DNA of 64,000 nt from an uncultured Bacteroidales bacterium (lineage in GTDB: Bacteria > Bacteroidota > Bacteroidia > Bacteroidales > FEN-979). The notes under the pieces were generated by a model. That model was not told the DNA's origin, did no database searches, and saw nothing but the letters and a program-made list of their open reading frames with translations. Numbering within the stretch: the stretch's first letter is position 1; each line of letters opens with the position of its first letter. Of the stretch, positions 2,660 to 64,000 are shown in pieces. The stretch is from the NCBI GenBank assembly GCA_903875045.1, contig CAIQUS010000060.1, positions 5,690 through 69,689 on the forward strand. Direction: 5' to 3'. Made by a program: the position numbers and the translations under genes.

Positions 2660-3892
2660 TCAGAGGCTTCCTTCATCGTATGCTTTTTCTCCATGCAACG
2701 CCACATCCAGGCCTTGTTTTTCATGTTGTTCCGACACACGCACCTTTGTTACCAGGTTGATCAATGCCAGCATGATGTAGGTGAAAATGAAGGCGTAGGC
2801 TGAAGCGGCAATTACAGTGATCAGTTGTTTAAGGAAAAATGAACTTTGTCCAAACCACAATCCTTCGGTTATAACGGCCGGGTTGATCATTTTTGTGGCG
2901 AAAACGCCAAGCAGAATGGTTCCAAGCACACCGCCGATTCCATGAACTCCCCATACATCGAGCGCGTCATCCCAATTCAACTTGTTTTTTAATTGTACAG
3001 CCAGGTAACATGTCACACCGGCCGCTACTCCGATGATGGGCGCCGACCACATGGGGACAAATCCCGCGCATGGAGTGATGGTTGCCAAACCGGCAATGGA
3101 ACCTGTCAACAGCCCAAGAAGTTTCGGACGCCCTTCGCGGATCCATTCAATGGCCACCCAGGCTGCCGTTGCAAAGGATGCTGCAACATCCGTATTAATA
3201 AATGCCAGCGCTGTGATTTTATCTACCTGTAACTCACTGCCGGCATTGAAACCGTACCATCCAAACCATAATAAACCACTCCCGATGGCAACAAGGGGGA
3301 TACTGTTGGGCGTCGAATTTTTATCTGATCGGGCACCTACATAAAATACCGAAGCCAGGGCTGCAAAACCTGCGGTGGCATGTACTACAATCCCACCTGC
3401 AAAATCAAGAACACCCCATTGCGCGAGCAACCCGTTTCCCCAGATCATGTGCACAAACGGATAGTACACCATGATCTGCCAAACAGTCAGAAAGATCATG
3501 TATGACCTGAAGGTTACACGATTTACAAACGCACCTGTAATGAGGGCCGGGGTGATGATTGCAAACATCATCTGGTAAACAATGAAAACAATTTCGGGGA
3601 TTTTTCCGTTGCCTGAATAAATGGAATCGATCGTAATACCGTTCAGAAAGATTTTATCCAGGTTCCCGAAAATCCCGCCTTCTCCGCCACTGAAACAAAG
3701 CGAATATCCGAATGTGACCCATAAAACAGTTGTCCAACCTAAAGAGGCGAAACTTTGTATCATGATCCCCAATATGTTCCTTTTCGTGGCCAGGCCACCA
3801 TAAAAAAACGCCAGTGCCGGCGTCATTAACATAACCAGGCTTGCCGATAACAGCATAAACCCGGTTGATCCAACATCGATTGTGCCTGTCAT
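2660..3892 (-). CDS. amt: Ammonium transporter (Amt family)
   Basis: 410 aa, 11-12 TM segments. 'FMLLSASLVMLMTPALAFFYGGL' and 'VHATAGFAALA' are classic Amt/AmtB motifs. Confidence 0.95.
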   Translation of the reverse strand: MTGTIDVGSTGFMLLSASLVMLMTPALAFFYGGLATKRNILGIMIQSFASLGWTTVLWVTFGYSLCFSGGEGGIFGNLDKIFLNGITIDSIYSGNGKIPEIVFIVYQMMFAIITPALITGAFVNRVTFRSYMIFLTVWQIMVYYPFVHMIWGNGLLAQWGVLDFAGGIVVHATAGFAALASVFYVGARSDKNSTPNSIPLVAIGSGLLWFGWYGFNAGSELQVDKITALAFINTDVAASFATAAWVAIEWIREGRPKLLGLLTGSIAGLATITPCAGFVPMWSAPIIGVAAGVTCYLAVQLKNKLNWDDALDVWGVHGIGGVLGTILLGVFATKMINPAVITEGLWFGQSSFFLKQLITVIAASAYAFIFTYIMLALINLVTKVRVSEQHEKQGLDVALHGEKAYDEGSL

Positions 3893-9873: not shown

Positions 9874-11130
9874 TTGAAAACGAAAAAGTTTCTTACCCGG
9901 ACAGTACTGCTCGTATCGTTTGTGAGCCTTTTCACCGATATTGCCAGTGAAATGCTTTATCCGATCATGCCTGTTTACCTTAAATCGATAGGGTTTTCTG
10001 TTTTACTGATAGGGATTCTGGAAGGAGTGGCTGAGGCAACCGCCGGGTTAAGCAAGGGTTATTTCGGGCATCTCTCGGATATCAAAAAACGGCGTGTTCC
10101 ATTTGTGCGTGCCGGTTATATGCTGAGTGCCTTTTCAAAACCCATGATGGCCGTTCTTACCTTCCCGTTATGGATATTTTTTGCCCGGACCCTCGACCGG
10201 TTTGGCAAAGGAATCCGAACAAGTGCCCGCGATGCCATGTTAAGTGACGAAACTACCCCGGAGCACAAAGGAAAAGTGTTTGGCTTTCACCGTTCGATGG
10301 ATACAACCGGCGCTGCCATTGGGCCAATTCTGGCTTTGATCTATCTGTGGTTTTATCCCGGCCAGTACAAATGGATGTTCGTCATAGCATTCGTTCCCGG
10401 CCTCATCGCCATTGCGCTTACATTTTTATTGAAGGATAAGGTTACAGGGTCACAGGGCCACAAGGTCACAGGGCCACAAGGTCACAGGGTCACAAAGTCA
10501 CAAGGTCGCCACATCATCACATCATCAAATCATCATATCGGCTTTTTTTCCTATTTGAAATACTGGTCGCGTGCTTCCTCCGGATTCAGATTTCTGGTTG
10601 CAGGGTTACTTGCGTTTACTCTTTTCAACAGCTCCGATGCTTTCCTTCTGCTGGCACTTAAAGAGCAAAACCTTTCCGATACCATGATGATCGGTGTTTA
10701 TATCTTTTACAATCTTGTTTATGCATTTTTTGCATATCCGGTTGGCGTCCTTGCCGATCGTATCGGGCTCAGAACCATGATGATCATCGGTCTTTTCCTC
10801 TTTGCCTTTGTTTATACAGCCATGGGATTTGCCTCCACCCTGACCATTTTCGGCCTACTCTTTTTTCTATACGGGATTTATGCCGCCTGCACCGAAGGAA
10901 TATCCAAGGCGCTCATCTCGAACATGGCAGATCAGGCCGATACCGCCACCGCCATAGGGTTCTTTAACAGCCTGGCAAGCATATTCACCCTACTTGCAAG
11001 TTCATTGGCCGGGGTGCTGTGGTACTCCATCGGGCCAAAGGCCATGTTTATGATTTCAGGGATCGGGGTTTTTGCGGTGGCGTGTTACCTGTTGTTTGTT
11101 TGGAACCACTTCACAGTGAGAAAGGTATGA
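9874..11130 (+). CDS. MFS transporter carrying a 32-codon repeat-derived insertion in its central loop
   Basis: 418 aa, TTG start, 12 predicted TM segments in a 6+6 layout. The loop segment 'VTGSQGHKVTGPQGHRVTKSQGRHIITSSNHH' is encoded by 12 tandem octamers. Confidence 0.8.
   Translation: MKTKKFLTRTVLLVSFVSLFTDIASEMLYPIMPVYLKSIGFSVLLIGILEGVAEATAGLSKGYFGHLSDIKKRRVPFVRAGYMLSAFSKPMMAVLTFPLWIFFARTLDRFGKGIRTSARDAMLSDETTPEHKGKVFGFHRSMDTTGAAIGPILALIYLWFYPGQYKWMFVIAFVPGLIAIALTFLLKDKVTGSQGHKVTGPQGHRVTKSQGRHIITSSNHHIGFFSYLKYWSRASSGFRFLVAGLLAFTLFNSSDAFLLLALKEQNLSDTMMIGVYIFYNLVYAFFAYPVGVLADRIGLRTMMIIGLFLFAFVYTAMGFASTLTIFGLLFFLYGIYAACTEGISKALISNMADQADTATAIGFFNSLASIFTLLASSLAGVLWYSIGPKAMFMISGIGVFAVACYLLFVWNHFTVRKV
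10441..10536 (+). repeat. Tandem octamer array (12 units, 96 nt) inside the MFS coding sequence, in frame
   Basis: gttacagg gtcacagg gccacaag gtcacagg gccacaag gtcacagg gtcacaaa gtcacaag gtcgccac atcatcac atcatcaa atcatcat, read directly from the sequence. Confidence 0.95.
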
Positions 11131-45999: not shown

Positions 46000-47667
46000 A
46001 TGAAAGCAATTATACATAGGCTCAGCTTTATTCATGACATTTGGAAAACATCAGGAAAGGCTCTTTTACTTCTTTTTGTGTTTTTAAATACTTTTTCAGT
46101 TTATTCACAGAGTTGGGCTCCTGTTGGTGGCGGGATGAACAACTGGGTTTATGCCACGACTATTTTTAATGGGGAACTCATTGCAGGTGGTCTTTTTACT
46201 TCGGCTGGCGGGGTGGCCGCCAACCATGTTGCCCGATGGAATGGAACTACATGGGCGCCATTGGGCTCAGGTGTAAATGGCAAAGTGAATGCACTGATTG
46301 TTTACAAAGGGAGCCTGGTTGCAGCAGGTGAATTTACCAATGCCGGCGGGCTTGATGTTAATTTCATTGCCCAATGGGACGGGACGGCCTGGGATGACCA
46401 ACTGGGCGGGGTTGGAAATACTGTCACATCTCTGGCGGTTATTGGAACTGATCTGTTTGTTGGTGGTTATTTTACCGAAGCTGATAATACTCCCGTGAAT
46501 TATATTGCCAAACGCAATTCAACCGGGTGGCACTCTCTGGGTGGCGGGATGGGAGGGGTGGGGTTGTCTGAAAAGGCAGTTATGGGTTTAACTGTTTATA
46601 ACGGAGAACTTTATGCCGGTGGATTTTTTACGACCGCCGGTGGCATACCTGCCAATCATATTGCCAAATGGGATGGCACCTCGTGGTCGGCTTTGGGAAC
46701 AGGTGTCGGAAATGTTGTTTATTCGCTGGCCGGTTATAATGGCAACCTGGTTGCCGGCGGACTTTTTATAAGTGCCGGCGGCAATCCTGCCAACTATATC
46801 GCTTCCTGGGATGGTACCTCCTGGTCGGCGATGGGCAGTGGCATGAGTGGCACATTTTATCAATATGTATTAACCTTGACCGTTTATAACAACAATCTGA
46901 TCGCAGGGGGCTATTTCACACATTCAGATGGCTTACAAACCAATGGCATTGCCAAGTGGAATGGTTCAGCGTGGAGTGCGATGGGGGGAGGTTTTTTTTA
47001 CCCCGCCAATGTATATGGCGCCCATACACTTTGCCTTTATGGCAGCGAATTAATTGTTGGCGGATTATTTTCATCTGCCGGTGGAACAGGCGCATCGCAT
47101 ATAGCGAGCTGGACTGAGCCCATTGTACCTGTTACGCTCAGCATTCAGGATGAAATTGTTCCAAACGGAACCACGATTTGCTACGATGCAACCCAAACAA
47201 TTACGGTTGCCGGCAACGGAACATCCTGTTTTGTTCAGGATGGAGGCATGGCTACCATGATTGCGGGACAAAATATAGTCTACCTCCCTGGAACGAAAGT
47301 CGATTCAGGGGGTTATCTGCTCGGTTATATAACCAATGCTGCACAATATTGCCTTTCCCCGTTCTCCCCAATGTCGGGCTTTTCGGTTGGAAAGGATAAC
47401 CAGTTGGTAAGTTCAGCCAAACCGGAATGTAAGGTTTATCCAAATCCCTCCGGCGGGCTTTTTAATGTTGAGTTAACCAACCTTCAGAAATCCCAAATGG
47501 TAAAAATGGAAGTCTTTAATATCCATGGCAAACCGGTGTTATCCTTGGAATTAAGAGATGAAAAGAACCATCAGCTTTCGCTGTCTGACAATCCTCCCGG
47601 AGTCTATTATGTCCGTCTGATCTCTTCAACAGGAACAGAAACCATAAAAATACTCCGGCAACAATAA
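46000..47667 (+). CDS. Secreted seven-repeat (beta-propeller-like) protein with T9SS C-terminal sorting domain
   Basis: 555 aa. Seven ~47-aa repeats 'W(D/N)GT.W..LG.G....V..L..Y.G.L.AGG.F..AGG..AN.IA'. The C-terminus 'VYPNPSGGLFNV...GVYYVRLISSTGTETIKIL' fits a T9SS CTD. Confidence 0.65.
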   Translation: MKAIIHRLSFIHDIWKTSGKALLLLFVFLNTFSVYSQSWAPVGGGMNNWVYATTIFNGELIAGGLFTSAGGVAANHVARWNGTTWAPLGSGVNGKVNALIVYKGSLVAAGEFTNAGGLDVNFIAQWDGTAWDDQLGGVGNTVTSLAVIGTDLFVGGYFTEADNTPVNYIAKRNSTGWHSLGGGMGGVGLSEKAVMGLTVYNGELYAGGFFTTAGGIPANHIAKWDGTSWSALGTGVGNVVYSLAGYNGNLVAGGLFISAGGNPANYIASWDGTSWSAMGSGMSGTFYQYVLTLTVYNNNLIAGGYFTHSDGLQTNGIAKWNGSAWSAMGGGFFYPANVYGAHTLCLYGSELIVGGLFSSAGGTGASHIASWTEPIVPVTLSIQDEIVPNGTTICYDATQTITVAGNGTSCFVQDGGMATMIAGQNIVYLPGTKVDSGGYLLGYITNAAQYCLSPFSPMSGFSVGKDNQLVSSAKPECKVYPNPSGGLFNVELTNLQKSQMVKMEVFNIHGKPVLSLELRDEKNHQLSLSDNPPGVYYVRLISSTGTETIKILRQQ

Positions 47668-47710
47668 CCCTTTACCATTTCACCATTTCGCCATTTCGCC
47701 ATTTTTCCCC
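47667..47710 (+). repeat. Tandem octamer array (CCATTTCG type, ~5 units) starting at the stop codon of the upstream gene
   Basis: ccatttca ccatttcg ccatttcg ccattttt cccc, read directly. Confidence 0.9.
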
Positions 47711-47740
47711 CAAACAGGCATTCCAATACCTGAATTGTTG

Positions 47741-47815: not shown

Positions 47816-49273
47816 ATGGAATCCCCATCAAACAAAATCCTGGATGAAGTAACGCAGGGTGATTACAAATATGGATTTGTCACGGATATCGAAACGGAAT
47901 TTGCCCCCATCGGACTTTCTGAGGATACCGTCCGTTATATCTCTCAAAAGAAAAACGAACCTGAATTTATGCTTCAATTCAGGTTAAAGGCTTACCGTCA
48001 CTGGCTTACCATGTCGCAGCCCCATTGGGCACACCTGAACATTGAACCGATCAAATTTCAGGATATTATTTTTTACGCAGCCCCAAAGAAAAAGCAGGAG
48101 TTGTCGAGTCTCGATGAGGTTGACCCTGAATTACTGGCAACCTTCAACAAACTGGGGATTTCACTGGATGAACAAAAAAAACTGGCCGGTGTGGCCGGTG
48201 TGGCAGTGGATGCTGTTATTGACAGTGTGTCGGTTAAAACGACGTTTTCAGAGACCCTGTCAAAGCATGGAATTATCTTTTGCTCTTTCAGTGAAGCAGT
48301 TCAAAACCATCCCGACCTGGTGAAACAATACATGGGGTCGGTGGTTCCTTACACGGATAACTATTTTGCCGCGCTCAATTCTGCTGTTTTCAGCGACGGC
48401 TCTTTCTGCTTTATTCCCAAAGGTGTGCGCTGCCCTATGGAATTGTCGACCTACTTTCGTATCAATGCTGCCAATACAGGTCAATTTGAACGTACGCTTA
48501 TTGTTGCAGAGGAGGGGGCTTATGTGAGTTATATGGAAGGTTGTACGGCACCCCAGCGTGATGAAAACCAGCTTCATGCCGCCATTGTCGAAATTGTGGC
48601 CATGAAAGATGCTGAAGTAAAGTATTCAACCGTGCAAAACTGGTATCCCGGCGACAAAAACGGGTTGGGCGGGATTTATAATTTTGTGACGAAACGTGGC
48701 ATCTGCAAGGGGAATAATTCCAAAATCAGCTGGACACAGGTGGAGACAGGCTCATCGATCACCTGGAAATATCCAAGCTGCATCCTGCTTGGAGATCATT
48801 CGGTAGGGGAGTTCTATTCCGTAGCTGTTACCAACAACCACCAGCAGGCCGATACAGGTACAAAAATGATGCACCTTGGTAAAAATACACGCAGTACCAT
48901 CATCTCCAAAGGAATTTCGGCCGGCAAGAGCAATAACTCTTACCGCGGACTGGTACGTATTTCGAAGAATGCGGTCAATTCCCGGAATTACAGCCAATGT
49001 GATTCACTCCTTCTTGGTGCCAAATGCGGGGCACATACCTGGCCGTACATACAGGTTGACAATAAATCATCTATTGTGGAACATGAGGCCACCACTTCGA
49101 AAATATCCGAAGATCAGCTCTTTTATTGCCAGCAACGCGGTATCTCGGCAGAAAGCGCCATCGGCCTCATTGTAAACGGTTATGCAAAGGAGGTGTTGAA
49201 ACAACTGCCCATGGAATTCGCAGTGGAAGCTCAGAAACTGCTGTCTATTTCACTGGAAGGGAGTGTGGGGTAA
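47816..49273 (+). CDS. sufB: Fe-S cluster assembly scaffold protein SufB
   Basis: 485 aa. 'YKYGF', '[14 protein letters not shown]', 'VQNWY' and '[21 protein letters not shown]' are SufB hallmarks. Confidence 0.95.
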
Positions 49274-49326
49274 TGTGATGATGTGATAATGTGATGATGT
49301 GATAATTTGAAGATTTGAGTTTTTTT
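49271..49326 (+). repeat. Tandem octamer array (16-nt super-period) in the sufB-sufC spacer, beginning in the sufB stop codon
   Basis: taatgtga tgatgtga taatgtga tgatgtga taatttga agatttga gttttttt. Confidence 0.9.
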
Positions 49327-59614: not shown

Positions 59615-59944
59615 TCAGTTAATTCCGATTATTTTTTCTACCGATCCGATCAAATCCTGCCAATCGGCGGTCAGCCCTGCCAGGTATTTCATACCCGTTT
59701 CGGTAATCTGGTGGTATTTTCGCGGAGGCCCCGATTTCGACTCTTCCCAGCGATACACCGTGAGCCCGTCGTTTTTCAGCCGTGTGAGCAACGGGTACAA
59801 GGTTCCTTCAACAACGATGAGTTTTGCTTCCTTTAACTTCGTGATGATGTCGGAAGCATAAGCGTCCTGTTTTGCGATGATCGCCAGGATACAGAGTTCG
59901 AGGACTCCTTTTCGCATCTGGGCATTTTGGTTTTCTGTGTTCAT
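59615..59944 (-). CDS. PadR-family transcriptional regulator
   Basis: Start reset to 'MNTENQNAQMRKGVLELCILAII'. 'GTLYPLLTRLKNDGL' is a winged-helix PadR signature. Confidence 0.85.
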   Translation of the reverse strand: MNTENQNAQMRKGVLELCILAIIAKQDAYASDIITKLKEAKLIVVEGTLYPLLTRLKNDGLTVYRWEESKSGPPRKYHQITETGMKYLAGLTADWQDLIGSVEKIIGIN

Positions 59945-60015
59945 GCGGCAAAGGTAATATAATTTTAGTACTATGCAATGCAAGGTAGTATAATTTATGA
60001 TTTTTTAACAGAAGA

Positions 60016-60141
60016 GTGGGCGAGTGGACGAGTGGGCGAGTGGGCAGGTGAACGGGTTGACGGGTGAACGGGTGAACGGGTAAACGGGTAGACGGGCGAA
60101 CGGGTAAACGGGTAAACAGGTGGACGGGTGAACAGGTGTGG
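60016..60141 (+). repeat. Tandem octamer array, G-rich orientation, ~15.75 units (left arm of the four-helix-bundle cassette)
   Basis: gtgggcga gtggacga gtgggcga gtgggcag gtgaacgg gttgacgg gtgaacgg gtgaacgg gtaaacgg gtagacgg gcgaacgg gtaaacgg gtaaacag gtggacgg gtgaacag gtgtgg. Confidence 0.95.
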
Positions 60142-60205
60142 ATAAAAGTTATTAACAAAGGGCTTACTTTAATCATTTTTTCTGATAAAGCATTAAATAA
60201 AAGCA

Positions 60206-60556
60206 ATGTATGCACATAAAAAGTTATCTTTATGGCAGGGGAGTATGGATCTTGCGGTAATTGTTTATCGGGTTACAGCCGGATTCCCGAAATCCGAAAT
60301 GTTTGGATTATCAAGCCAGGTCAGGAGATCCGTAGTATCAATTCCAGCAAACATCAGTGAAGGAGCAGGCCGTGGCAGACCGAGAGAATTTATCAGGTTT
60401 CTAAGAATATCAAATGGTAGTCTTTCCGAACTTGATACACATTTGGATCTGGCTTTCCGACTCAATTATATCGAAGCGGAGACCTTTAACGATCTCACGG
60501 GCAAAATGAGAAAAATCAGTGCACAAATTTCCGGTTTGATCAGATCACTGGAATAA
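60206..60556 (+). CDS. Four-helix-bundle protein (23S rRNA intervening-sequence protein / S23p family, the fold family of DGR Avd)
   Basis: 116 aa. 'LAVIVYRVTAGFPKSEMFGLSSQVRRSVVSIPANISEGAGR....EFIRFLRISNGSLSELDTHL' is the characteristic signature of this family. Confidence 0.85.
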   Translation: MYAHKKLSLWQGSMDLAVIVYRVTAGFPKSEMFGLSSQVRRSVVSIPANISEGAGRGRPREFIRFLRISNGSLSELDTHLDLAFRLNYIEAETFNDLTGKMRKISAQISGLIRSLE

Positions 60557-60573
60557 AAACCAAAATATCATTT

Positions 60574-60645
60574 CACCCGTTTACCTGTTTACCTGTTTAC
60601 CTGTTTACCTGTTTACTTGTTCACTCGCCCACTCGTCCACACATT
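60574..60645 (+). repeat. Tandem octamer array, C-rich orientation, 9 units (right arm, mirror image of 60016-60141)
   Basis: cacccgtt tacctgtt x4 tacttgtt cactcgcc cactcgtc cacacatt. 60622-60640 is the exact reverse complement of 60024-60042 (19 nt). Confidence 0.95.
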
Positions 60646-60650
60646 TTCCT

Positions 60651-60658
60651 TAACTTTG
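60651..60658 (+). promoter_or_regulatory. Candidate -7 box (TAacTTTG) for sufE
   Basis: taactttg lies 21 nt upstream of the ATG at 60679, directly after the array. Confidence 0.4.
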
Positions 60659-60678: not shown

Positions 60679-61104
60679 ATGACCATCCCAGAAAAAGAAT
60701 CCCAAATCATCACCGAGTTCGCCATGTTCGACGACTGGATTGATAAATACAATTACCTTATTGAACTTGGGAAAACACTTAACGTGATCGAAGAACAGTA
60801 TAAAACAGACCAATACCTGATTACCGGATGCCAGTCGAAGGTGTGGCTTCACGCATCCATCAGGGAAGGCAAGGTGGTTTTCACCGGCGACAGCGATGCC
60901 ATCATCACAAAAGGGATTGTGAGCCTGCTGATACAGGTGCTTTCCGATCAAACCCCCGATGAAATCATCCAGGCAAAACTGGAATTTATCGACAAGATCG
61001 GTTTGCAGGAACACCTCTCACCAACCCGCAGCAACGGACTTTCGGCGATGATCAAACAGATGAAACTTTATGCCACTGTATTTAAAATGAAACGCGGAAA
61101 CTAA
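60679..61104 (+). CDS. sufE: SufE-family cysteine desulfuration (sulfur acceptor) protein
   Basis: 141 aa. 'DWIDKYNYLIELGK' and 'ITGCQSKVWL' (persulfide-accepting Cys) motifs. Confidence 0.85.
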   Translation: MTIPEKESQIITEFAMFDDWIDKYNYLIELGKTLNVIEEQYKTDQYLITGCQSKVWLHASIREGKVVFTGDSDAIITKGIVSLLIQVLSDQTPDEIIQAKLEFIDKIGLQEHLSPTRSNGLSAMIKQMKLYATVFKMKRGN

Positions 61105-61150: not shown

Positions 61151-61156
61151 ATAATT

Positions 61157-61240
61157 CCGTACCTACGGCACGGAAAATGGTTATGATCTATGACTGGCTA
61201 CCAAAAGTTGGCTCCTACGGAGCCGGAAGGTAAATTTGCC
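61157..61240 (+). repeat. 84-nt double-hairpin element, copy 1
   Basis: Hairpin 1 is ccgtacc-tac-ggcacgg and hairpin 2 is ggctcc-tac-ggagcc, 53 nt apart. 72 of 84 positions are identical to copy 2, and both hairpins are 100% conserved. Confidence 0.85.
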
Positions 61241-61242
61241 TG

Positions 61243-61346
61243 CCACTCGTCCACTCGTCCACTTGCCCACTCGTCCACTCGTCCACTTGCCCACTCGCCC
61301 ACTCGTCCACTCGCCCACTTGCCCACTCGCCCACTCGCCCAACTGA
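61243..61346 (+). repeat. Tandem octamer array, C-rich, 13 units, abutting the ATPase stop codon
   Basis: ccactcgt x2 ccacttgc ccactcgt x2 ccacttgc ccactcgc ccactcgt ccactcgc ccacttgc ccactcgc x2 ccaactga. Confidence 0.95.
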
Positions 61347-62470
61347 TCACCCTAAAACCTCCGGATAATTCTTCCGATTAACTTCCCTGAATGTGAAAGG
61401 TTGATATTCTTTGCTAAAACTTTCAGGTATCCGGATTCTCTTTGATGGACTCCATTTAAACTCAAAAGCCTCAAATTCGGCATTTTTTTCCCGCACCAGG
61501 TCAACTTCCTGTTGCTGGTGTGTCCGCCAGAAATAATAAGAGGCGATATTGTCCTCATATTGATCTTTCTTGATGATTTCGCTAACGAGGTAGTTCTCCC
61601 ACAATTTTCCGGTATCATCACGTAATGCAAGTGGGTTGAACTGATTGATCAGGGCGTTTCTTATACCGTTGTCCCAAAAATAGACCTTTCGGGATTTCTT
61701 TATTTCATTGCGTTGATTCCTTGCAAGTGATGGCAGTGTGAAAATTACAAACGACTTTTCCAGAAGATCGAGGTAGCGGATCACGGTATTCCGGTCGCAT
61801 CCTGCAGTTTCTCCCAATTCGGTGAGGGAAACTTCACCGGTGATCTGGAGTGCAAGTGCTTTCAATATTTTGGGAATGATGCTGGGTTTTCTGACCGAAT
61901 CCAATGACAAAATATCCTTGTACAGGTAATCTCCTGCAAGTTCATGAAGGAGCTTTGGCTTTTCCAGTTGTGAAAGAACAATTTCCGGATACATGCCGTA
62001 AATTAGCCGCTGTTCAAGCAGCCGGTTTTCTTCCATTTCCGAAAAAGCCCCGGTCAGTTCTGAATAAGAAAACGGGTGAAGTTGAAACTCAAGTTTTCTT
62101 CCGGTAAGCGGCTCGTGAATAGTGTCCCGTAACCCCAGTGCAGAGGATCCTGTGACAATCAGTTGAATATCCTTCAGATGATCAGTAATCAGTTTTAGTG
62201 TAACGCCAATGTTTTGAATCCGCTGTGCTTCATCGATGATCAGCAATTCCTTGTTTCCAATCCTGTGCTTGAGTTCTGTCGAACCTGGACGGTTGAGAAA
62301 CTGTTCCACATCCGGTTCATCACAATTCAGGAATAAAAATGATTTTCCGATGATTTTGCCAATTCCAGCGCCAGTGTTGTTTTCCCGACCTGCCGTGCAC
62401 CGGTGATGTGAACTGCTTTCCCACTGAAAAGGTATTTTTCAATGACCGCCTGAAGCTTCCTCTGAATCAT
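61347..62470 (-). pseudogene. AAA+ ATPase (AAA_14 + DUF4143 type) interrupted by a -1 frameshift in a homopolymer
   Basis: The N-terminal 47 codons 'MIQRKLQAVIEKYLFSGKAVHITGARQVGKTTLALELA...' (Walker A) stop at 62327-62329. The +2 frame continues 'KIIGKSFLFLNCDEPDVEQFLN...IIDEAQRI...' into the 320-aa ORF. The switch maps to the A4 run at 62354-62357. Confidence 0.75.
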
Positions 62471-62532
62471 AATATATGAATTAATTCACAAGTTTAATAT
62501 AAAATTCATGAATAGGTTCCTATATTTTAATA

Positions 62533-62572
62533 AATGGCGAAATGTCGAAATGGCGAAATAGCGAAATCAGAT
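62533..62572 (+). repeat. Tandem octamer array (AATGGCGA type, 5 units)
   Basis: aatggcga aatgtcga aatggcga aatagcga aatcagat. This is the reverse complement of the CCATTTCG word family. Confidence 0.9.
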
Positions 62573-62587
62573 TTCCTGTAAATAATC

Positions 62588-62671
62588 CCGTACCTACGGC
62601 ACGGAAAATCATTATAATTACTGACCGGCTATCAATATTTGGCTCCTACGGAGCCGAAAGGTAAATTCGCC
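62588..62671 (+). repeat. 84-nt double-hairpin element, copy 2
   Basis: Same two hairpins with the same 53-nt spacing as copy 1. It is flanked by inverted arrays (62533-62572 and 62663-62694). Confidence 0.85.
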
Positions 62672-62766
62672 ATTTCGCCATTTTCCCATTTTCCCTGTTT
62701 ACCCGTTCACCTGTTTCCCTTTCCACCTGCCCACTCGCCCACTTGCCCACTTGCCCACCTGGTCAC
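62663..62766 (+). repeat. Tandem octamer array, 13 units, with a stepwise gradient of unit types, abutting the oxidoreductase stop codon
   Basis: aaattcgc catttcgc cattttcc x2 ctgtttac ccgttcac ctgtttcc ctttccac ctgcccac tcgcccac ttgcccac x2 ctggtcac. Confidence 0.95.
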
Positions 62767-63407
62767 CTCCTCAACAATTTAAACGCATGTCCCCACTCAT
62801 TCCTGAGAAATCCCGGGATACACCACAACATACACAGTGGTTCAATAGCTCTTGCAGCCTCAACCGCACCCATATCCTCAGTTTCCCAGCCAAACTGGCC
62901 GAGGATGGCAGTTACCTGTCTTTTTGCCTCCGGATCGTTACCGCATATAAACATGGATGGTTTGATCCCGCCGAAATCGGGGTTGATCATAAAGTTGTTT
63001 CCCACGCTGTTAAAGGCTTTAACAAACCGTGCTTCGGGCACCACCAACTGCAACTGTTCCATCTGGGAACTGCCGAGATTGGTGTAATATTGCAGTACTC
63101 CGTTCACGGGGGCAGCATCGGCAATAGGATTCGTGGTATCAATCACGATCTTTCCTCGAAAATTGGTAATACCCGCAAGTTGGAGGGCTGCTTCTGCCAT
63201 GTTTCCTTTTACGGCAAGGACGATGATTTCTCCGAATGCAGCAGCATCTCTGAAGCTCCCTGTAACGGCATTGTTCGTTTTGAGCCATTCAGCCAGTTTC
63301 GAAATGTCTCTTGTGCCCAGCATTACGTCATATCCGTGTTTCAGGAAGCCACTTCCCAGCATCTGGGCGACAACGCCTGAACCTAAAATTCCGATTTTTG
63401 TTTTCAT
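62763..63407 (-). CDS. NAD(P)-binding oxidoreductase (NADPH-dependent F420 reductase / ProC-like Rossmann family)
   Basis: 214 aa. The N-terminal 'KIGILGSGVVAQMLGSGFLKHGYDV' dinucleotide fold and overall similarity recalled to NpdG-like proteins. Confidence 0.7.
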   Translation of the reverse strand: MKTKIGILGSGVVAQMLGSGFLKHGYDVMLGTRDISKLAEWLKTNNAVTGSFRDAAAFGEIIVLAVKGNMAEAALQLAGITNFRGKIVIDTTNPIADAAPVNGVLQYYTNLGSSQMEQLQLVVPEARFVKAFNSVGNNFMINPDFGGIKPSMFICGNDPEAKRQVTAILGQFGWETEDMGAVEAARAIEPLCMLWCIPGFLRNEWGHAFKLLRR

Positions 63408-63456
63408 TGTTTTTGAAGGTTTGGTTTATGATTGGTTAGTATACTTGGGTTTGTTG

Positions 63457-63507
63457 GCAAGTGGGCGAGTGGGCGAGTGGACAAGTGGACGAGTGGGCGG
63501 GTGGGGG
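63457..63507 (+). repeat. Tandem octamer array, G-rich orientation, ~6 units
   Basis: gcaagtgg gcgagtgg gcgagtgg acaagtgg acgagtgg gcgggtgg ggg. Confidence 0.9.
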
Positions 63508-63630
63508 AAATTAGTTGTTCCTGGATTTCCACCCGGCAATTACCTCTTTCAAATGAACCCTTCTCTGTTGGCAAAGGAGGAGAGTTTTTGGGGTAAAGTG
63601 TTGTATGTCCTTCCGAGCGCATGGATCGAT

Positions 63631-64000
63631 TCATGAAGAAGTATTATTATCCCCATGTGTCCACCTGCCCACTCGTCCACTCGCCCACTTGCCCACCTTT
63701 TTCCTTATCCTCCCGACCACCGAAAACCTCGACATATCTATCAGTTTATGATTCAGCAGATAGGTAATCACCCTTTTTTCGATTTCATGGTGGAGCGGAA
63801 GGAGGATTGCTATGAGAAAAATTTTAATAAGCAGTACTTTCCAGGGTTCGCCATGAGTGATCTCTTCTATCCTGTGATCAGCCAGTAAAATAATGAACTC
63901 AAAGAGGAAGATGAATGAGAAGAAACCCAGCATCCTGATGATCCACTCGGGAACCTTCAGGCTCCCAAGCATGATCAATAATACAAATGCCGAAAGGATC
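63631..64000 (-). CDS. C-terminal fragment of a membrane protein; reading frame is open to the window edge and its last ~16 codons lie in an octamer array
   Basis: There is no in-frame stop between 63978 and 64000. Two hydrophobic helices are visible. The tail '...KKVGKWASGRVGRWTHGDNNTSS' is translated from the array at 63653-63700. Confidence 0.35.
   Translation of the reverse strand, partial: ILSAFVLLIMLGSLKVPEWIIRMLGFFSFIFLFEFIILLADHRIEEITHGEPWKVLLIKIFLIAILLPLHHEIEKRVITYLLNHKLIDMSRFSVVGRIRKKVGKWASGRVGRWTHGDNNTSS
63653..63700 (+). repeat. Tandem octamer array, C-rich orientation, 6 units (inverted partner of 63457-63507)
   Basis: ccatgtgt ccacctgc ccactcgt ccactcgc ccacttgc ccaccttt. Its reverse complement has the same unit order as 63457-63507. 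Confidence 0.9.

Follow-up and report, generated by a model that had tools for sequence, protein, structure and literature searches.

The DNA analysed here, hereafter the window, is the whole stretch of 64,000 nucleotides from an uncultured Bacteroidales bacterium. It carries a gene of the PF05635 four-helix-bundle (4HB) family at 60206-60556, lying between a G-rich array of octamers (60014-60141) and an array that is its reverse complement (60572-60645). The gene, the arrays and a perfect complement between their outer ends, all reported in the initial annotation, are present where it had put them. The placement between padR-pspC and sufE, outside rRNA, is likewise borne out by the Pfam matches of the neighbours and by Rfam, which returns nothing at gathering score, rRNA included, in the 64-kb window. 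The features are:

59615..59947, minus strand: padR (with pspC behind it), left neighbour, transcribed away from the cassette; outside the element
60014..60045, plus strand: left arm, outer part, 4 octamer units GTGGRCGA (TRF period 8, 4.0 copies, 91% matches)
60046..60141, plus strand: left arm, inner part, about 12 octamer units GTRAACRG (TRF 60047-60138, period 8, 11.5 copies)
60142..60205, plus strand: spacer of 64 nt from the left arm to the ATG, opening with the conserved core end AAGTTATTAACA
60206..60556, plus strand: 4HB gene (PF05635 / TIGR02436), 116 aa
60557..60571, plus strand: short spacer from the stop codon to the right arm
60572..60621, plus strand: right arm, inner part, about 6 units CYGTTTAC, the complement of GTAAACRG (TRF 60575-60621, period 8, 5.9 copies, 94% matches)
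60622..60645, plus strand: right arm, outer part, CACTCGCC CACTCGTC CAC, with the exact complement of 60024-60042
60679..61104, plus strand: sufE, right neighbour; outside the element

The neighbouring genes encode SufBD, a MutS-like protein, a peptidase M16, SufS, PspC, PadR, SufE, an AAA/DUF4143 protein and an F420-type oxidoreductase; among them there is neither a reverse transcriptase domain, on either side of the 4HB gene, nor a recombinase or invertase gene. Pfam recognises no transposase domain, the only Pfam matches of the flanked gene being PF05635 and a weak one to bAvd, and the PADLOC defence models give no match. No target-site duplication is found, the flanks (...TTAACAGAA / array and array / ATTTTCCTT) having no direct repeat in common. 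Directly next to the right arm there is a -7-like box of Bacteroidetes type (TTAACTTTGC), and this flank is kept in the relatives L084, L085 and L087, which also have in common the outermost GTCCAC unit of the right arm beside it. The 64-nt spacer probably holds a promoter (read by eye) and 5′UTR of the cassette's own.

The 116-aa product is a member of the 23S rRNA IVS-protein family, as had been proposed: PF05635 (23S_rRNA_IVP) matches residues 5-109 of 116 with an E-value of 1.1e-36 and 125.6 bits (cut-off 33.8), and TIGR02436 with 125.2 bits (cut-off 24). It contains the helix-2 motif Q-x-R-R-x-x-x-S-x-P-x-N-I-x-E-G, in which Q38, N49, I50, E52 and G53 are invariant and R40, R41, S45 and P47 nearly so (34 sequences), in agreement with the family motif GxxRxxxSxxxNxxE (PMC3936711). 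Its sequence relatives in the PDB are 2GSC (E 3.9e-41) and 2RLD, both entries containing five chains. Values of dN/dS between 0.07 and 0.15 (0.10-0.15 against L165, L167 and L164) indicate a functional protein under purifying selection. Its sequence has no recognisable motif of a recombinase or a nuclease, and there are no relatives among phage records.

Avd, the accessory protein of diversity-generating retroelements (DGRs), belongs to the same four-helix-bundle fold family, in which the solved relatives are pentamers, and weak matches to PF22296 (E 0.001) and NF033474 might suggest that the gene is a remnant or orphan of such an element. However, these matches reach 20 bits against a cut-off of 40 and 19.7 bits against a cut-off of 80, respectively, the neighbours encode no reverse transcriptase, no template/variable repeat pair is present and no phage match was obtained, so that this origin is effectively refuted.

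Octamer arrays on both sides, as initially described, are detected by TRF with period 8 at 60014-60045, 60047-60138, 60575-60621 and 60622-60640. The described series of units is also there: the left arm runs from GTGGGCGA/GTGGACGA through GTGAACGG/GTAAACGG to GTAAACAG, and the right arm contains the complements in reversed order. The perfect 19-nt complement consists of 60024-60042 (GTGGACGAGTGGGCGAGTG) and its exact reverse complement at 60622-60640, within a longest inverted pair of 66 nt with 82% complementarity (60024-60089 with 60575-60640). The arms are very unequal in length, with 126 and 72 nt here and 203 and 668 nt in L029, and 11 of the 12 arm mismatches at this locus are G.T, being copies of one unit difference and not independent events. 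A stem of about 70 bp had been predicted, and the region does fold far more stably than shuffled sequences both as RNA and as DNA (z = -7.2 for the latter). The RNA fold of 60005-60655 has -234.8 kcal/mol against -170.8 +/- 7.3 in shuffles (z = -8.8), with the arms closing into one long stem in the minimum-energy as well as the centroid fold.

Octamer arrays elsewhere in the window

The arrays enclose the 4HB gene as first noted, but they are no private feature of it, as they belong to a genome-wide repeat family that occupies about seven sites in the window. These sites hold about a dozen arrays of several unit types, with three convergent pairs and a single 4HB gene, and two of them start at or on a stop codon. 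Period 8 accounts for 196 strongly periodic positions in the window, period 7 for 11, and periods 6, 9 and 10 for none; no array was found in 253 kb of shuffled DNA. Three of the sites downstream of the cassette are given below, without strand:

61239..61349: C-rich octamer array standing alone, with 12 units CCACTCGY, preceded by a copy of an 85-nt element
62527..62776: second array hairpin, gene-less; fold z = -4.9
63448..63698: third array hairpin, gene-less; fold z = -7.5

The second hairpin consists of a AAATGGCG array, a core of 85-90 nt with two UAC-loop hairpins, and a CGCCATTT array grading into CCACTCGC units; the third consists of a GGCGAGTG array, a non-coding core of 149 nt without any 4HB relic, and a CCACTCGY array. 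The 85-nt two-hairpin element was not found in any other locus of the comparison set. A search of the window for another 4HB gene, and of its gene-less hairpins for the decayed remains of one, returned chance matches only (E at least 0.03), inside suf genes. Around the arrays, Rfam gives sub-threshold chance matches only, e.g. of plant miRNA models on the long hairpin at 63460-63698.

Because arrays greatly outnumber 4HB genes, they need no such gene in cis. This bears on an explanation in which the gene is a passenger in 7-9-nt repeats that the host generates by replication slippage and that became palindromic by template switching; the gene would accumulate or best survive in their loops, gene and arms not serving each other. 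Arrays that are several-fold commoner than 4HB genes, and hairpins that are empty, are indeed seen in the window, in the 1.07 Mb compared and in published data (PMC4692102), and the very unequal arms point in the same direction.

Arrays at 4HB genes in other genomes and in rRNA

Other 4HB genes, across phyla, are also bracketed by inverted short-period arrays, an association for which the initial annotation had proposed a search. Arrays of 7-, 8- or 9-nt units lie within 250 nt of 56 of the 80 homologues, which come from many phyla; under strict calls they stand on both sides in 31 loci and on one side in 25, the period always being equal on the two sides, and the remaining 24 homologues have no array at that threshold. 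Across the 80 homologues, coverage near the gene (up to 250 nt) and far away from it is 3.5% and 0.28% of positions for period 7, 1.06% and 0.03% for period 8, and 0.10% and 0.003% for period 9, with other periods at about zero. Complementary flanks at z >= 5 are present in 51 of 84 loci. In the 4HB loci of other genomes, period 7 prevails (160 of 239 arrays), followed by 8 (60) and 9 (10).

In 1.07 Mb there are 40 inverted array pairs, 28 of which enclose a 4HB gene (gap 368-603 nt), the other 12 being empty, with loops of 5-149 nt in 11 cases; no canonical pair among the 40 encloses a gene other than 4HB. The polarity 5′G-rich...C-rich 3′ is shared by 37 of them. Neither this polarity, nor the domination of each genome by one period, nor the 4HB gene as the only gene in canonical pairs is explained by slippage with a passenger gene. 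The same holds for arrays that occur in rRNA helix 45 only together with a 4HB ORF, for a unit type that tracks the 4HB lineage, and for the density of arrays, which is 20.3 per 100 kb in 4HB-carrying genomes and 4.7 in unselected loci (4.3-fold, a comparison that is confounded by taxonomy). In favour of that explanation, the period goes with the host genome rather than with the phylogeny of the 4HB protein, period-8 loci being scattered over the tree, and one site has period-8 arrays around 4HB genes of two unrelated lineages (see below). In addition, wobble pairs are not in excess among the coding-strand mismatches of arms outside rRNA (91 of G.T type and 99 of A.C type), so that RNA pairing is not visibly selected in those arms. 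Taken with both sides of this evidence, a mere passenger gene seems quite unlikely.

In 46 loci the 4HB gene points the same way as the genes on its two sides, and in three it is antisense to both of them; the median spacers measure 92 and 75 nt. This sense bias fits a putative co-transcription and release by RNase III. Two further accounts of the arrays were discarded. Many unit types (GTGAATG, GTGAAAA, AATCGTA) lack the G-tracts of a G-quadruplex, and an origin from target-site duplications would yield direct, not inverted, arrays.

The protein family takes its name from the intervening sequences (IVSs) of 23S rRNA, and 4HB ORFs inside LSU rRNA were found in L168 and L171-L178, all of them sense-oriented and arranged as in the cassette. 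In five distinct 23S rRNA IVSs with a 4HB ORF the arms are heptamer arrays, and their mismatches are biased towards wobble pairs (10 of G.U type, 3 of A.C type). For Coxiella, a 28-bp stem, RNase III cleavage and GACAGAT heptamers in variable number are on record (PMC4990558), and excision of the IVS by RNase III has been published for Coxiella, Leptospira and Salmonella (PMC4990558). The proposal of an IVS-like stem-loop cassette outside rRNA, with a gene of the 23S IVS family and perhaps selfish or mobile, is thus supported by the stem, by the other 4HB genes and by the relatives alike, and with heptamer arms in these five rRNA IVSs and in Coxiella, the analogy is stronger than could be known from the window.

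The helix-45 IVSs of rRNA (Leptospira, S23p of Coxiella burnetii) resemble the cassette in size (428 nt in Coxiella, 630 nt here) and in having a PF05635 ORF in the loop and a stem of terminal inverted repeats, with tandem 7-nt units and a purine-rich 5′ arm in the five IVSs compared and in the published Coxiella data. They differ in location (rRNA, and not between padR and sufE) and in their arms, which measure about 28-40 nt, whereas those of the cassette have 126 and 72 nt and an 8-nt unit. An IVS in the rRNA sense replaces the loop of helix 9, 25 or 45, which the cassette does not, and RNase III excision has been demonstrated for rRNA IVSs only, while the cassette probably has its own promoter. 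Still, arrays and complementary flanks in many 4HB loci, and heptamer arms in rRNA IVSs, place the locus among IVS-type elements.

The padR-sufE site in related lineages

The 4HB gene and its octamer arrays occupy the padR-sufE site in all six related lineages sampled, and are seen there in L084, L085, L087, L165/L166 and L167. The interval is neither identical nor array-free in relatives: array length and unit type differ, cores are inverted and two 4HB lineages (A and B) are found. The core, i.e. the spacer and the gene, is inverted in L085 and L165/L166 with the polarity of the arrays unchanged, the 64-nt spacer moving together with the gene. Identity of the 4HB proteins between lineages A and B is 43-55%, as against 67-91% for SufE, PadR, PspC and SufS; three of these four neighbours place the window closest to L084. 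The cores at this site therefore fall into two deeply separated 4HB lineages, whose relationships disagree with those of the genes beside them. An inverted core, and a core lineage independent of its neighbours, imply that DNA recombines at the arms, and two unrelated 4HB lineages at one site imply that cores are exchanged between arrays. The arms are unstable and recombinogenic, with differences in length and unit type among close relatives.

The inverted example in L165 has a scaffold gap in one arm; those in L166 and L085 lie on unbroken sequence, although assembly across inverted repeats can go wrong.

The unit comparison further indicates that unit type goes with core lineage. GTRAACRG units accompany the lineage-A core in L164-L167, L164 being another genomic context in which a lineage-A core with the same unit type occurs, and GTGGRCGA is the commonest unit both in other arrays of the source genome and in lineage-B relatives. 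Inner units travel with the core, and the outer units here look like those of the older resident array, which gives rise to the mirrored gradient of units. That gradient, to which the initial annotation had drawn attention, is real at this locus but not general, as the arms of L166 are not mirror-ordered; it is best explained as a hybrid of older outer and cassette-type inner units. Core replacement and the second genomic context also suggest that the cassette is mobile, with no clean insertion polymorphism among relatives: an empty orthologous site was not found, every close relative being occupied. In the distant relatives L088 and L089, there is a single array upstream of padR and another neighbour on the far side, so that they do not count in this comparison.

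Two orientations of the core at one site could also be taken for a regulatory device of the host, either an invertible core that steers read-through to sufE or to padR-pspC, as in phase variation, or a stem that serves as a processing or terminator signal. The retention of the cassette in all six lineages sampled and the sufE -7-like box abutting the right arm would agree with such a role. However, both orientations are seen between species only: the contigs L001-L003, from three further assemblies, encode an identical 4HB protein and share the orientation of the window relative to padR. Moreover, no invertase gene lies nearby, and the same type of cassette stands in rRNA and, in many phyla, beside genes of unrelated kinds, so that it has no fixed link with the regulation of suf or psp. 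A regulatory switch or signal of this kind is very improbable.

A probable family of foldback cassettes and its known counterparts

The locus probably represents one member of a widespread family of foldback cassettes of the IVS type, with a 4HB gene in the loop and inverted arrays of 7-9-nt units as arms. Cores of such cassettes would flip between arms and pass between arrays. Within a transcription unit, both arms would be transcribed and would pair into a long duplex, which RNase III would cut, freeing the cassette RNA and leaving the host transcript or rRNA functional, and such insertions would be tolerated for that reason; the orientation of the genes across the family and the published rRNA IVSs both point this way. 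At the padR-sufE locus itself, co-transcription of the two arms is doubtful, as the upstream neighbour padR is divergent and a plus-strand transcript of the left arm would require a further, putative promoter. Since the site lies between divergent genes, the 4HB gene probably uses the promoter in its 64-nt spacer, and either orientation would be tolerated. The 4HB protein may be an Avd-like pentameric nucleic-acid binder that binds or protects the repeat arms or their RNA, and would in that case serve the element and not be a housekeeping protein of the host.

A more active part for the protein is conceivable. REPIN-RAYT systems, as Bertels and Rainey reportedly described them in 2011, consist of dispersed hairpin-forming inverted doublets and a RAYT gene flanked by REP repeats. 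Empty doublets there far outnumber the gene, and the gene is flanked by its own repeats, as here, where the 4HB gene lies between inverted copies of a repeat that occurs genome-wide in hairpin-forming doublets; the differences are a Y1 (IS200/IS605-type) transposase there and a four-helix bundle here, and a single REP there and tandem arrays here, trans-mobilisation in the present case being putative. By analogy, the 4HB pentamer would act in trans in creating, spreading or maintaining arrays, with its gene flanked by its own substrate. A unit type that follows the 4HB lineage suggests cognate pairing, and the higher array density of 4HB-carrying genomes fits as well, with the taxonomic confounding already mentioned; structural relatives are pentamers and typical arrays have 4-5 units (PMC4692102), and Avd relatives are cofactors of a templated polymerase (PMC10053308). 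Against it stand a 4HB protein without catalytic motif, several unit types in the window for one 4HB gene and a period that does not follow the protein tree, and we regard a RAYT-like role as unlikely. In a specific form of it, each protomer of the pentamer would bind one 7-9-nt unit, and the protein would be the trans-acting factor of a bacterial repeat element of a hitherto unrecognised class, by which arrays (heptamer SSRs, STRRs and IVS arms) are created, extended or spread; this is to be seen as a tentative idea of equally low probability. The near-universal 5′G-rich...C-rich 3′ polarity could in that case be the outcome of templated extension at two facing 3′ ends.

The foldback cassette favoured above has a structural parallel in eukaryotes. 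Foldback (FB) transposons of Drosophila have long terminal inverted repeats composed of tandem short subrepeats, and their arms promote inversions and rearrangements. As here, the subrepeat type changes from the outer to the inner end, and the loop may or may not contain coding sequence; unlike the cassette, they are eukaryotic, much larger and without a related protein.

Among bacterial repeats, there is a likeness to over-represented heptameric SSRs, namely the STRRs of cyanobacteria and the arrays with GGGAATC / GGGGAYT units in Xanthomonas and Nostoc (Rehm et al. 2015, PMC4692102), which are likewise dispersed and mostly intergenic with a short G-rich unit, start near the end of the upstream gene, form many convergent pairs and vary in length between relatives (PMC4692102). 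They have a unit of 7 nt, whereas it is 8 nt here, with several unit types lacking G-tracts; the arrays in the lineage of the source genome would then be a period variant of this type. In the papers on heptamer SSRs, the arrays are discussed as SSR or G-quadruplex features, and neither 4HB genes nor IVSs are brought into connection with them (PMC4692102). In the literature searched, which left most subscription-journal papers outside, no statement of arrays flanking 4HB genes was found, the partial observations being those in Coxiella and, unremarked, in a supplementary table for Xanthomonas.

One phenomenon would in this way join the rRNA IVS with its S23p ORF (of unknown function since 1993), the large, little-characterised 4HB family related to Avd and the excess of 7-nt repeats in many bacterial genomes (STRR, GGGAATC). 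If the rule holds genome-wide, IVSs would be no speciality of rRNA but the conspicuous part of a much more general class, with hairpin cassettes in operons and spacers as well; inversion, exchange of cassettes and breaks in assemblies could be expected at arrays, and array flanks would explain the many 4HB genes that lie on very short metagenomic contigs. The function of 4HB proteins would also become directly testable, e.g. with XCC0516 and the GGGAATC arrays in Xanthomonas. There, 186 heptamer arrays have been described (PMC4692102), and no. 15 of the GGGAATC arrays extends over the beginning of XCC0516, which is a crystallised member of the family (PMC4692102 supplement).

Four-helix-bundle genes between inverted arrays

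The 116-aa ORF at 60206-60556 (+), between padR (59615-59947, -) and sufE (60679-61104, +), is a member of PF05635/TIGR02436, matching PF05635 (23S_rRNA_IVP) with 125.6 bits (cut-off 33.8) and TIGR02436 with 125.2 bits (cut-off 24). A reading as the accessory protein Avd of a diversity-generating retroelement (DGR) was rejected, since the DGR Avd models score only far below threshold for this protein. The four-helix-bundle (4HB) protein has a dN/dS of 0.07-0.15 (six comparisons) and is therefore functional; the structures solved for its relatives 2GSC and 2RLD were each deposited with five chains. Period-8 arrays are reported by Tandem Repeats Finder on both sides of the gene.

60014-60045, period-8 array, left
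60047-60138, period-8 array, left
60575-60621, period-8 array, right
60622-60640, period-8 array, right

The left and right arrays are reverse complements (best pair 66 nt, 82% complementarity), including an exact complement of 60024-60042 with 60622-60640; the ORF, octamer arrays, mutual complementarity and 19-nt outer complement are thus as described in the initial annotation. The stem proposed there is also found: single-strand folding of 60005-60655 gives a long stem around the 4HB gene, more stable than shuffled controls both as RNA (-234.8 kcal/mol versus -170.8 +/- 7.3; z = -8.8) and as DNA (z = -7.2).

With one genome scanned per species, 4HB homologues (41-59% identity) were found at 80 loci, in Bacteroidota, Acidobacteriota, Nitrospirota, Desulfuromonadota, Gammaproteobacteria, Cloacimonadota and others. 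Period 7 scores best in both 300-nt flanks of nearly all loci, and period 8 or 9 in some; periodicity is concentrated close to the gene.

Table. Strongly periodic positions around 4HB genes (period; share at most 250 nt from the gene; share more than 600 nt away)
7; 3.5%; 0.28%
8; 1.06%; 0.03%
9; 0.10%; 0.003%
5, 6, 10-12; about 0; about 0

The inverted arrays in these flanks consist of genome-specific units (e.g. GTGAATG, AACGGGT, GGGTTAT, GTGAAAA, GCGGTGAA). Under a strict call of about four or more units, arrays are present on both sides in 31 of the 80 loci, always with equal period, on one side in 25 and on neither in 24; the flanks are complementary at z >= 5 in 51 of 84 loci, so that many other 4HB genes also lie within inverted short-period arrays. 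The 1.07 Mb of fetched DNA holds 239 arrays (period 7, 160; period 8, 60; period 9, 10) and 40 adjacent inverted pairs, 28 of them around a 4HB gene (gap 368-603 nt) and 12 empty (loop 5-149 nt in 11); none of the 40 is a canonical pair around any other gene. Finished cyanobacterial plasmids share this layout, e.g. that of Calothrix, where GGGTGTA arrays flank a gene annotated as "S23 ribosomal protein", and a GGGAATC array, not remarked on in that paper, spans the start of XCC0516, a crystallised family member (PMC4692102 supplement). One locus with 9-nt units (L053, 1-610) is nested: C-rich array, 4HB gene, G-rich array, 17-nt loop and C-rich array; here the gene is followed by an empty array hairpin, which shows that a 4HB gene may lie between two hairpins as well as within one. 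Most relatives of the protein in the databases are on contigs <2 kb, and the contigs with the window's own 4HB protein (L001-L003) stop at the arrays. Short-read assemblies are broken by arrays or rRNA context, and the 4HB family is therefore probably under-binned in MAGs.

Each genome has essentially one period, which matches neither the 4HB protein tree nor host family. Within the Flavobacteriaceae, the period around 4HB genes is 8 in Confluentibacter and Galbibacter (L041, L071) versus 7 in Ochrovirga and Robertkochia (L066, L082), so that neither a host trait at family level nor, visibly, the protein clade accounts for the ruler. The polarity is 5'G-rich...C-rich 3' in 37 of 40 inverted pairs (window and loci L004-L178 of other genomes), on both strands and thus regardless of how the enclosed gene is oriented; this chirality is predicted by none of the mechanisms considered. 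Array density is 20.3 per 100 kb in genomes known to carry a 4HB gene versus 4.7 in unselected Bacteroidota loci (4.3 times), a comparison confounded by taxonomy but compatible with a relationship like that of RAYT transposases and REPINs. The element is neither a REPIN-RAYT system nor a classical transposon.

Intervening sequences of 23S rRNA and transcription of the arms

A match without annotated gene on the Azospirillum lipoferum plasmid AZO_p2 falls within a 23S rRNA gene, some 1,150 nt after the start of that gene, and the flanking rRNA sequence points to helix 45 as the insertion site. Its arms are heptamer arrays (GAGGACG GATGACA GAGGACG GAGGACA and complement). Eight other loci, which add four distinct sequences, have homologues of its protein, in each case within LSU rRNA and in sense orientation. 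The arms at all LSU rRNA loci are heptamer arrays, e.g. CAGAAGT... / ...CTTCTGA or CAGAGGA... / ...CTGTCCT, the 5' arm being the purine-rich one; their polarity is likewise 5'G-rich...C-rich 3'. In the Coxiella intervening sequence (IVS), RNase III cuts in a 28-bp stem, and two or three GACAGAT heptamers, depending on strain, precede S23p (Warrier et al., PMC4990558). Since genuine 23S rRNA IVSs with a 4HB ORF have heptamer-array arms, the IVS-like architecture proposed in the initial annotation becomes a homology of design. The window element works like an rRNA IVS but lies outside rRNA, the location that defines one. Heptamer SSRs and their convergent pairs, STRRs and IVSs have each been published; the link of 4HB genes, inverted short-period arrays and IVS arms was not found in the literature searched, outside which many older subscription papers lie. 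This link, with 4HB genes of many phyla looped out between inverted short-period arrays and the arms of IVSs made of arrays of this kind, unites three unexplained features and is readily testable.

Arm mismatches in rRNA IVSs lean to wobble pairs (sense strand, 10 of G.U type versus 3 of A.C type), with no such lean outside rRNA (91 versus 99). RNase III-type processing is well founded in the literature for rRNA IVSs, plausible for operon-embedded 4HB copies and, at the padR-sufE locus, hypothetical and perhaps irrelevant. Among the 80 loci, the upstream neighbour points the same way as the 4HB gene in 60/71 and the downstream neighbour in 60/70, at median spacers, arms included, of 92 and 75 nt.

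Table. Orientation of neighbours relative to the 4HB gene (loci with both neighbours callable)
Both co-directional: 46
Both antisense: 3
Upstream divergent, downstream co-directional: 8
Upstream co-directional, downstream convergent: 5

Because the arms allow inversion, this bias implies selection for sense orientation, in which both arms would usually be co-transcribed with the host operon, as they are in rRNA; 4HB genes wedged between cas genes (PMC3936711) fit this. The padR-sufE site is one of the 8 divergent-upstream cases and is symmetric, as in either orientation one neighbour lies behind the gene and the other ahead of it, which may explain the survival of both orientations. Here the 4HB gene would need its own promoter, a candidate being a Bacteroidetes -7-like box seen by eye in the 64-nt spacer before the gene, clearest in lineage B (TAccTTTG).

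Core exchange at the padR-sufE site

Relatives were found by a metagenome scan with the neighbouring PspC and by look-ups of the closest 4HB proteins. The order sufE-[ ]-padR-pspC-sufS recurs in six related lineages (L084, L085, L087, L165/L166, L167 and one contig without DNA), all with a 4HB gene and octamer arrays between padR and sufE. The interval is neither identical nor array-free in these relatives: array-flank boundaries are conserved, and array length and unit type (both widely), core orientation and 4HB lineage differ. The core (spacer and gene) is inverted in L085 and L165/L166 (L166 and L085 contiguous, L165 with a gap), with array polarity towards the flanks unchanged, the expected product of recombination between inverted arms. 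The 4HB proteins form lineages A (window, L165, L167) and B (L084, L085, L087), with 43-55% identity between and 65-80% within them. SufE, PadR, PspC and SufS are star-like (67-91% identity), the window being closest to L084 for 3 of the 4; given this discordance, the core has been replaced at a fixed site. The unit type goes with the core (GTRAACRG in A, GCGGACAR in B), which in this small sample is compatible with a RAYT/REPIN-like relationship, and L164 has a lineage-A core with A-type arrays in unrelated genomic context. Arrays and cores behave at the DNA level: expansion and contraction, inversion and core exchange are directly visible.

The mirrored unit gradient described earlier is present in the window arms but is not a general rule, the arms of L166 not being mirror-ordered. 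The window arms are hybrid, their outer units being B-like (GTGGRCGA) and their inner units A-type; as the origin of the gradient we infer an older resident array in which a lineage-A cassette became nested or with which it recombined. The distant relatives L088 and L089 have a single 8-nt array of GTGATGAG / GGGATGAA type upstream of padR (3475-3542 and 3509-3541), with no 4HB gene and a different far-side gene; the stretch ahead of padR seems to have housed arrays for a long time.

Octamer arrays elsewhere in the window

Period 8 accounts for 196 strongly periodic positions in the window and period 7 for 11, while periods 6, 9 and 10 have none. Octamer arrays occur at about seven sites within the 64 kb and are a genome-wide family, with unit types common to several sites (GTGGRCGA, GTRAACRG, AAATGGCG, ATGTGATG); the window has no second 4HB gene or relic.

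10438-10539, in-frame octamer array, 102 nt, AAGGTCAC x9 then CACATCAT x4, in ORF 9874-11130 (+)
47662-47711, single array, starting at the stop codon of ORF 46000-47667
49264-49320, single array, starting on the stop codon of sufB-like ORF 47816-49273
61239-61349, single array
62527-62776, inverted pair, 5'G-rich...C-rich 3', non-coding core 85-90 nt, hairpin fold z = -4.9
63448-63698, inverted pair, 5'G-rich...C-rich 3', non-coding core 149 nt, hairpin fold z = -7.5

Arrays can settle in coding sequence, as the one at 10438-10539 is in frame within a 418-aa MFS-like membrane protein and encodes KVTGSQGH-type 8-residue repeats, apparently in its central loop. The units of the arrays at 47662-47711 and 49264-49320 contain TGA or TAA, which at period 8 puts a stop codon in every frame; the latter array ends in a nine-T run ahead of the next gene. 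In 62661-62776 the units drift stepwise (CGCCATTT, CCCATTTT, CCCTGTTTA, CCCGTTCA, CCACCTGC, CCACTCGC), as if unit after unit had been copied imperfectly, and this series connects the genome's different unit types.

An 85-nt element has two copies of like orientation, separated by 1.4 kb (61155-61240 and 62586-62672), with two UAC-triloop hairpins (CCGTACCTACGGCACGG and GGCTCCTACGGAGCC) and a C-rich octamer array directly after each copy. Rfam gives no match for it, and none of the other fetched loci contains it; possible identities are a small RNA and a second cargo type of the arrays. Exactly between the two copies and their arrays lies a split AAA_14/DUF4143 ATPase gene (61347-62470, -; ORFs 61347-62309 and 62327-62470), which may have been disrupted within this repeat-rich patch.
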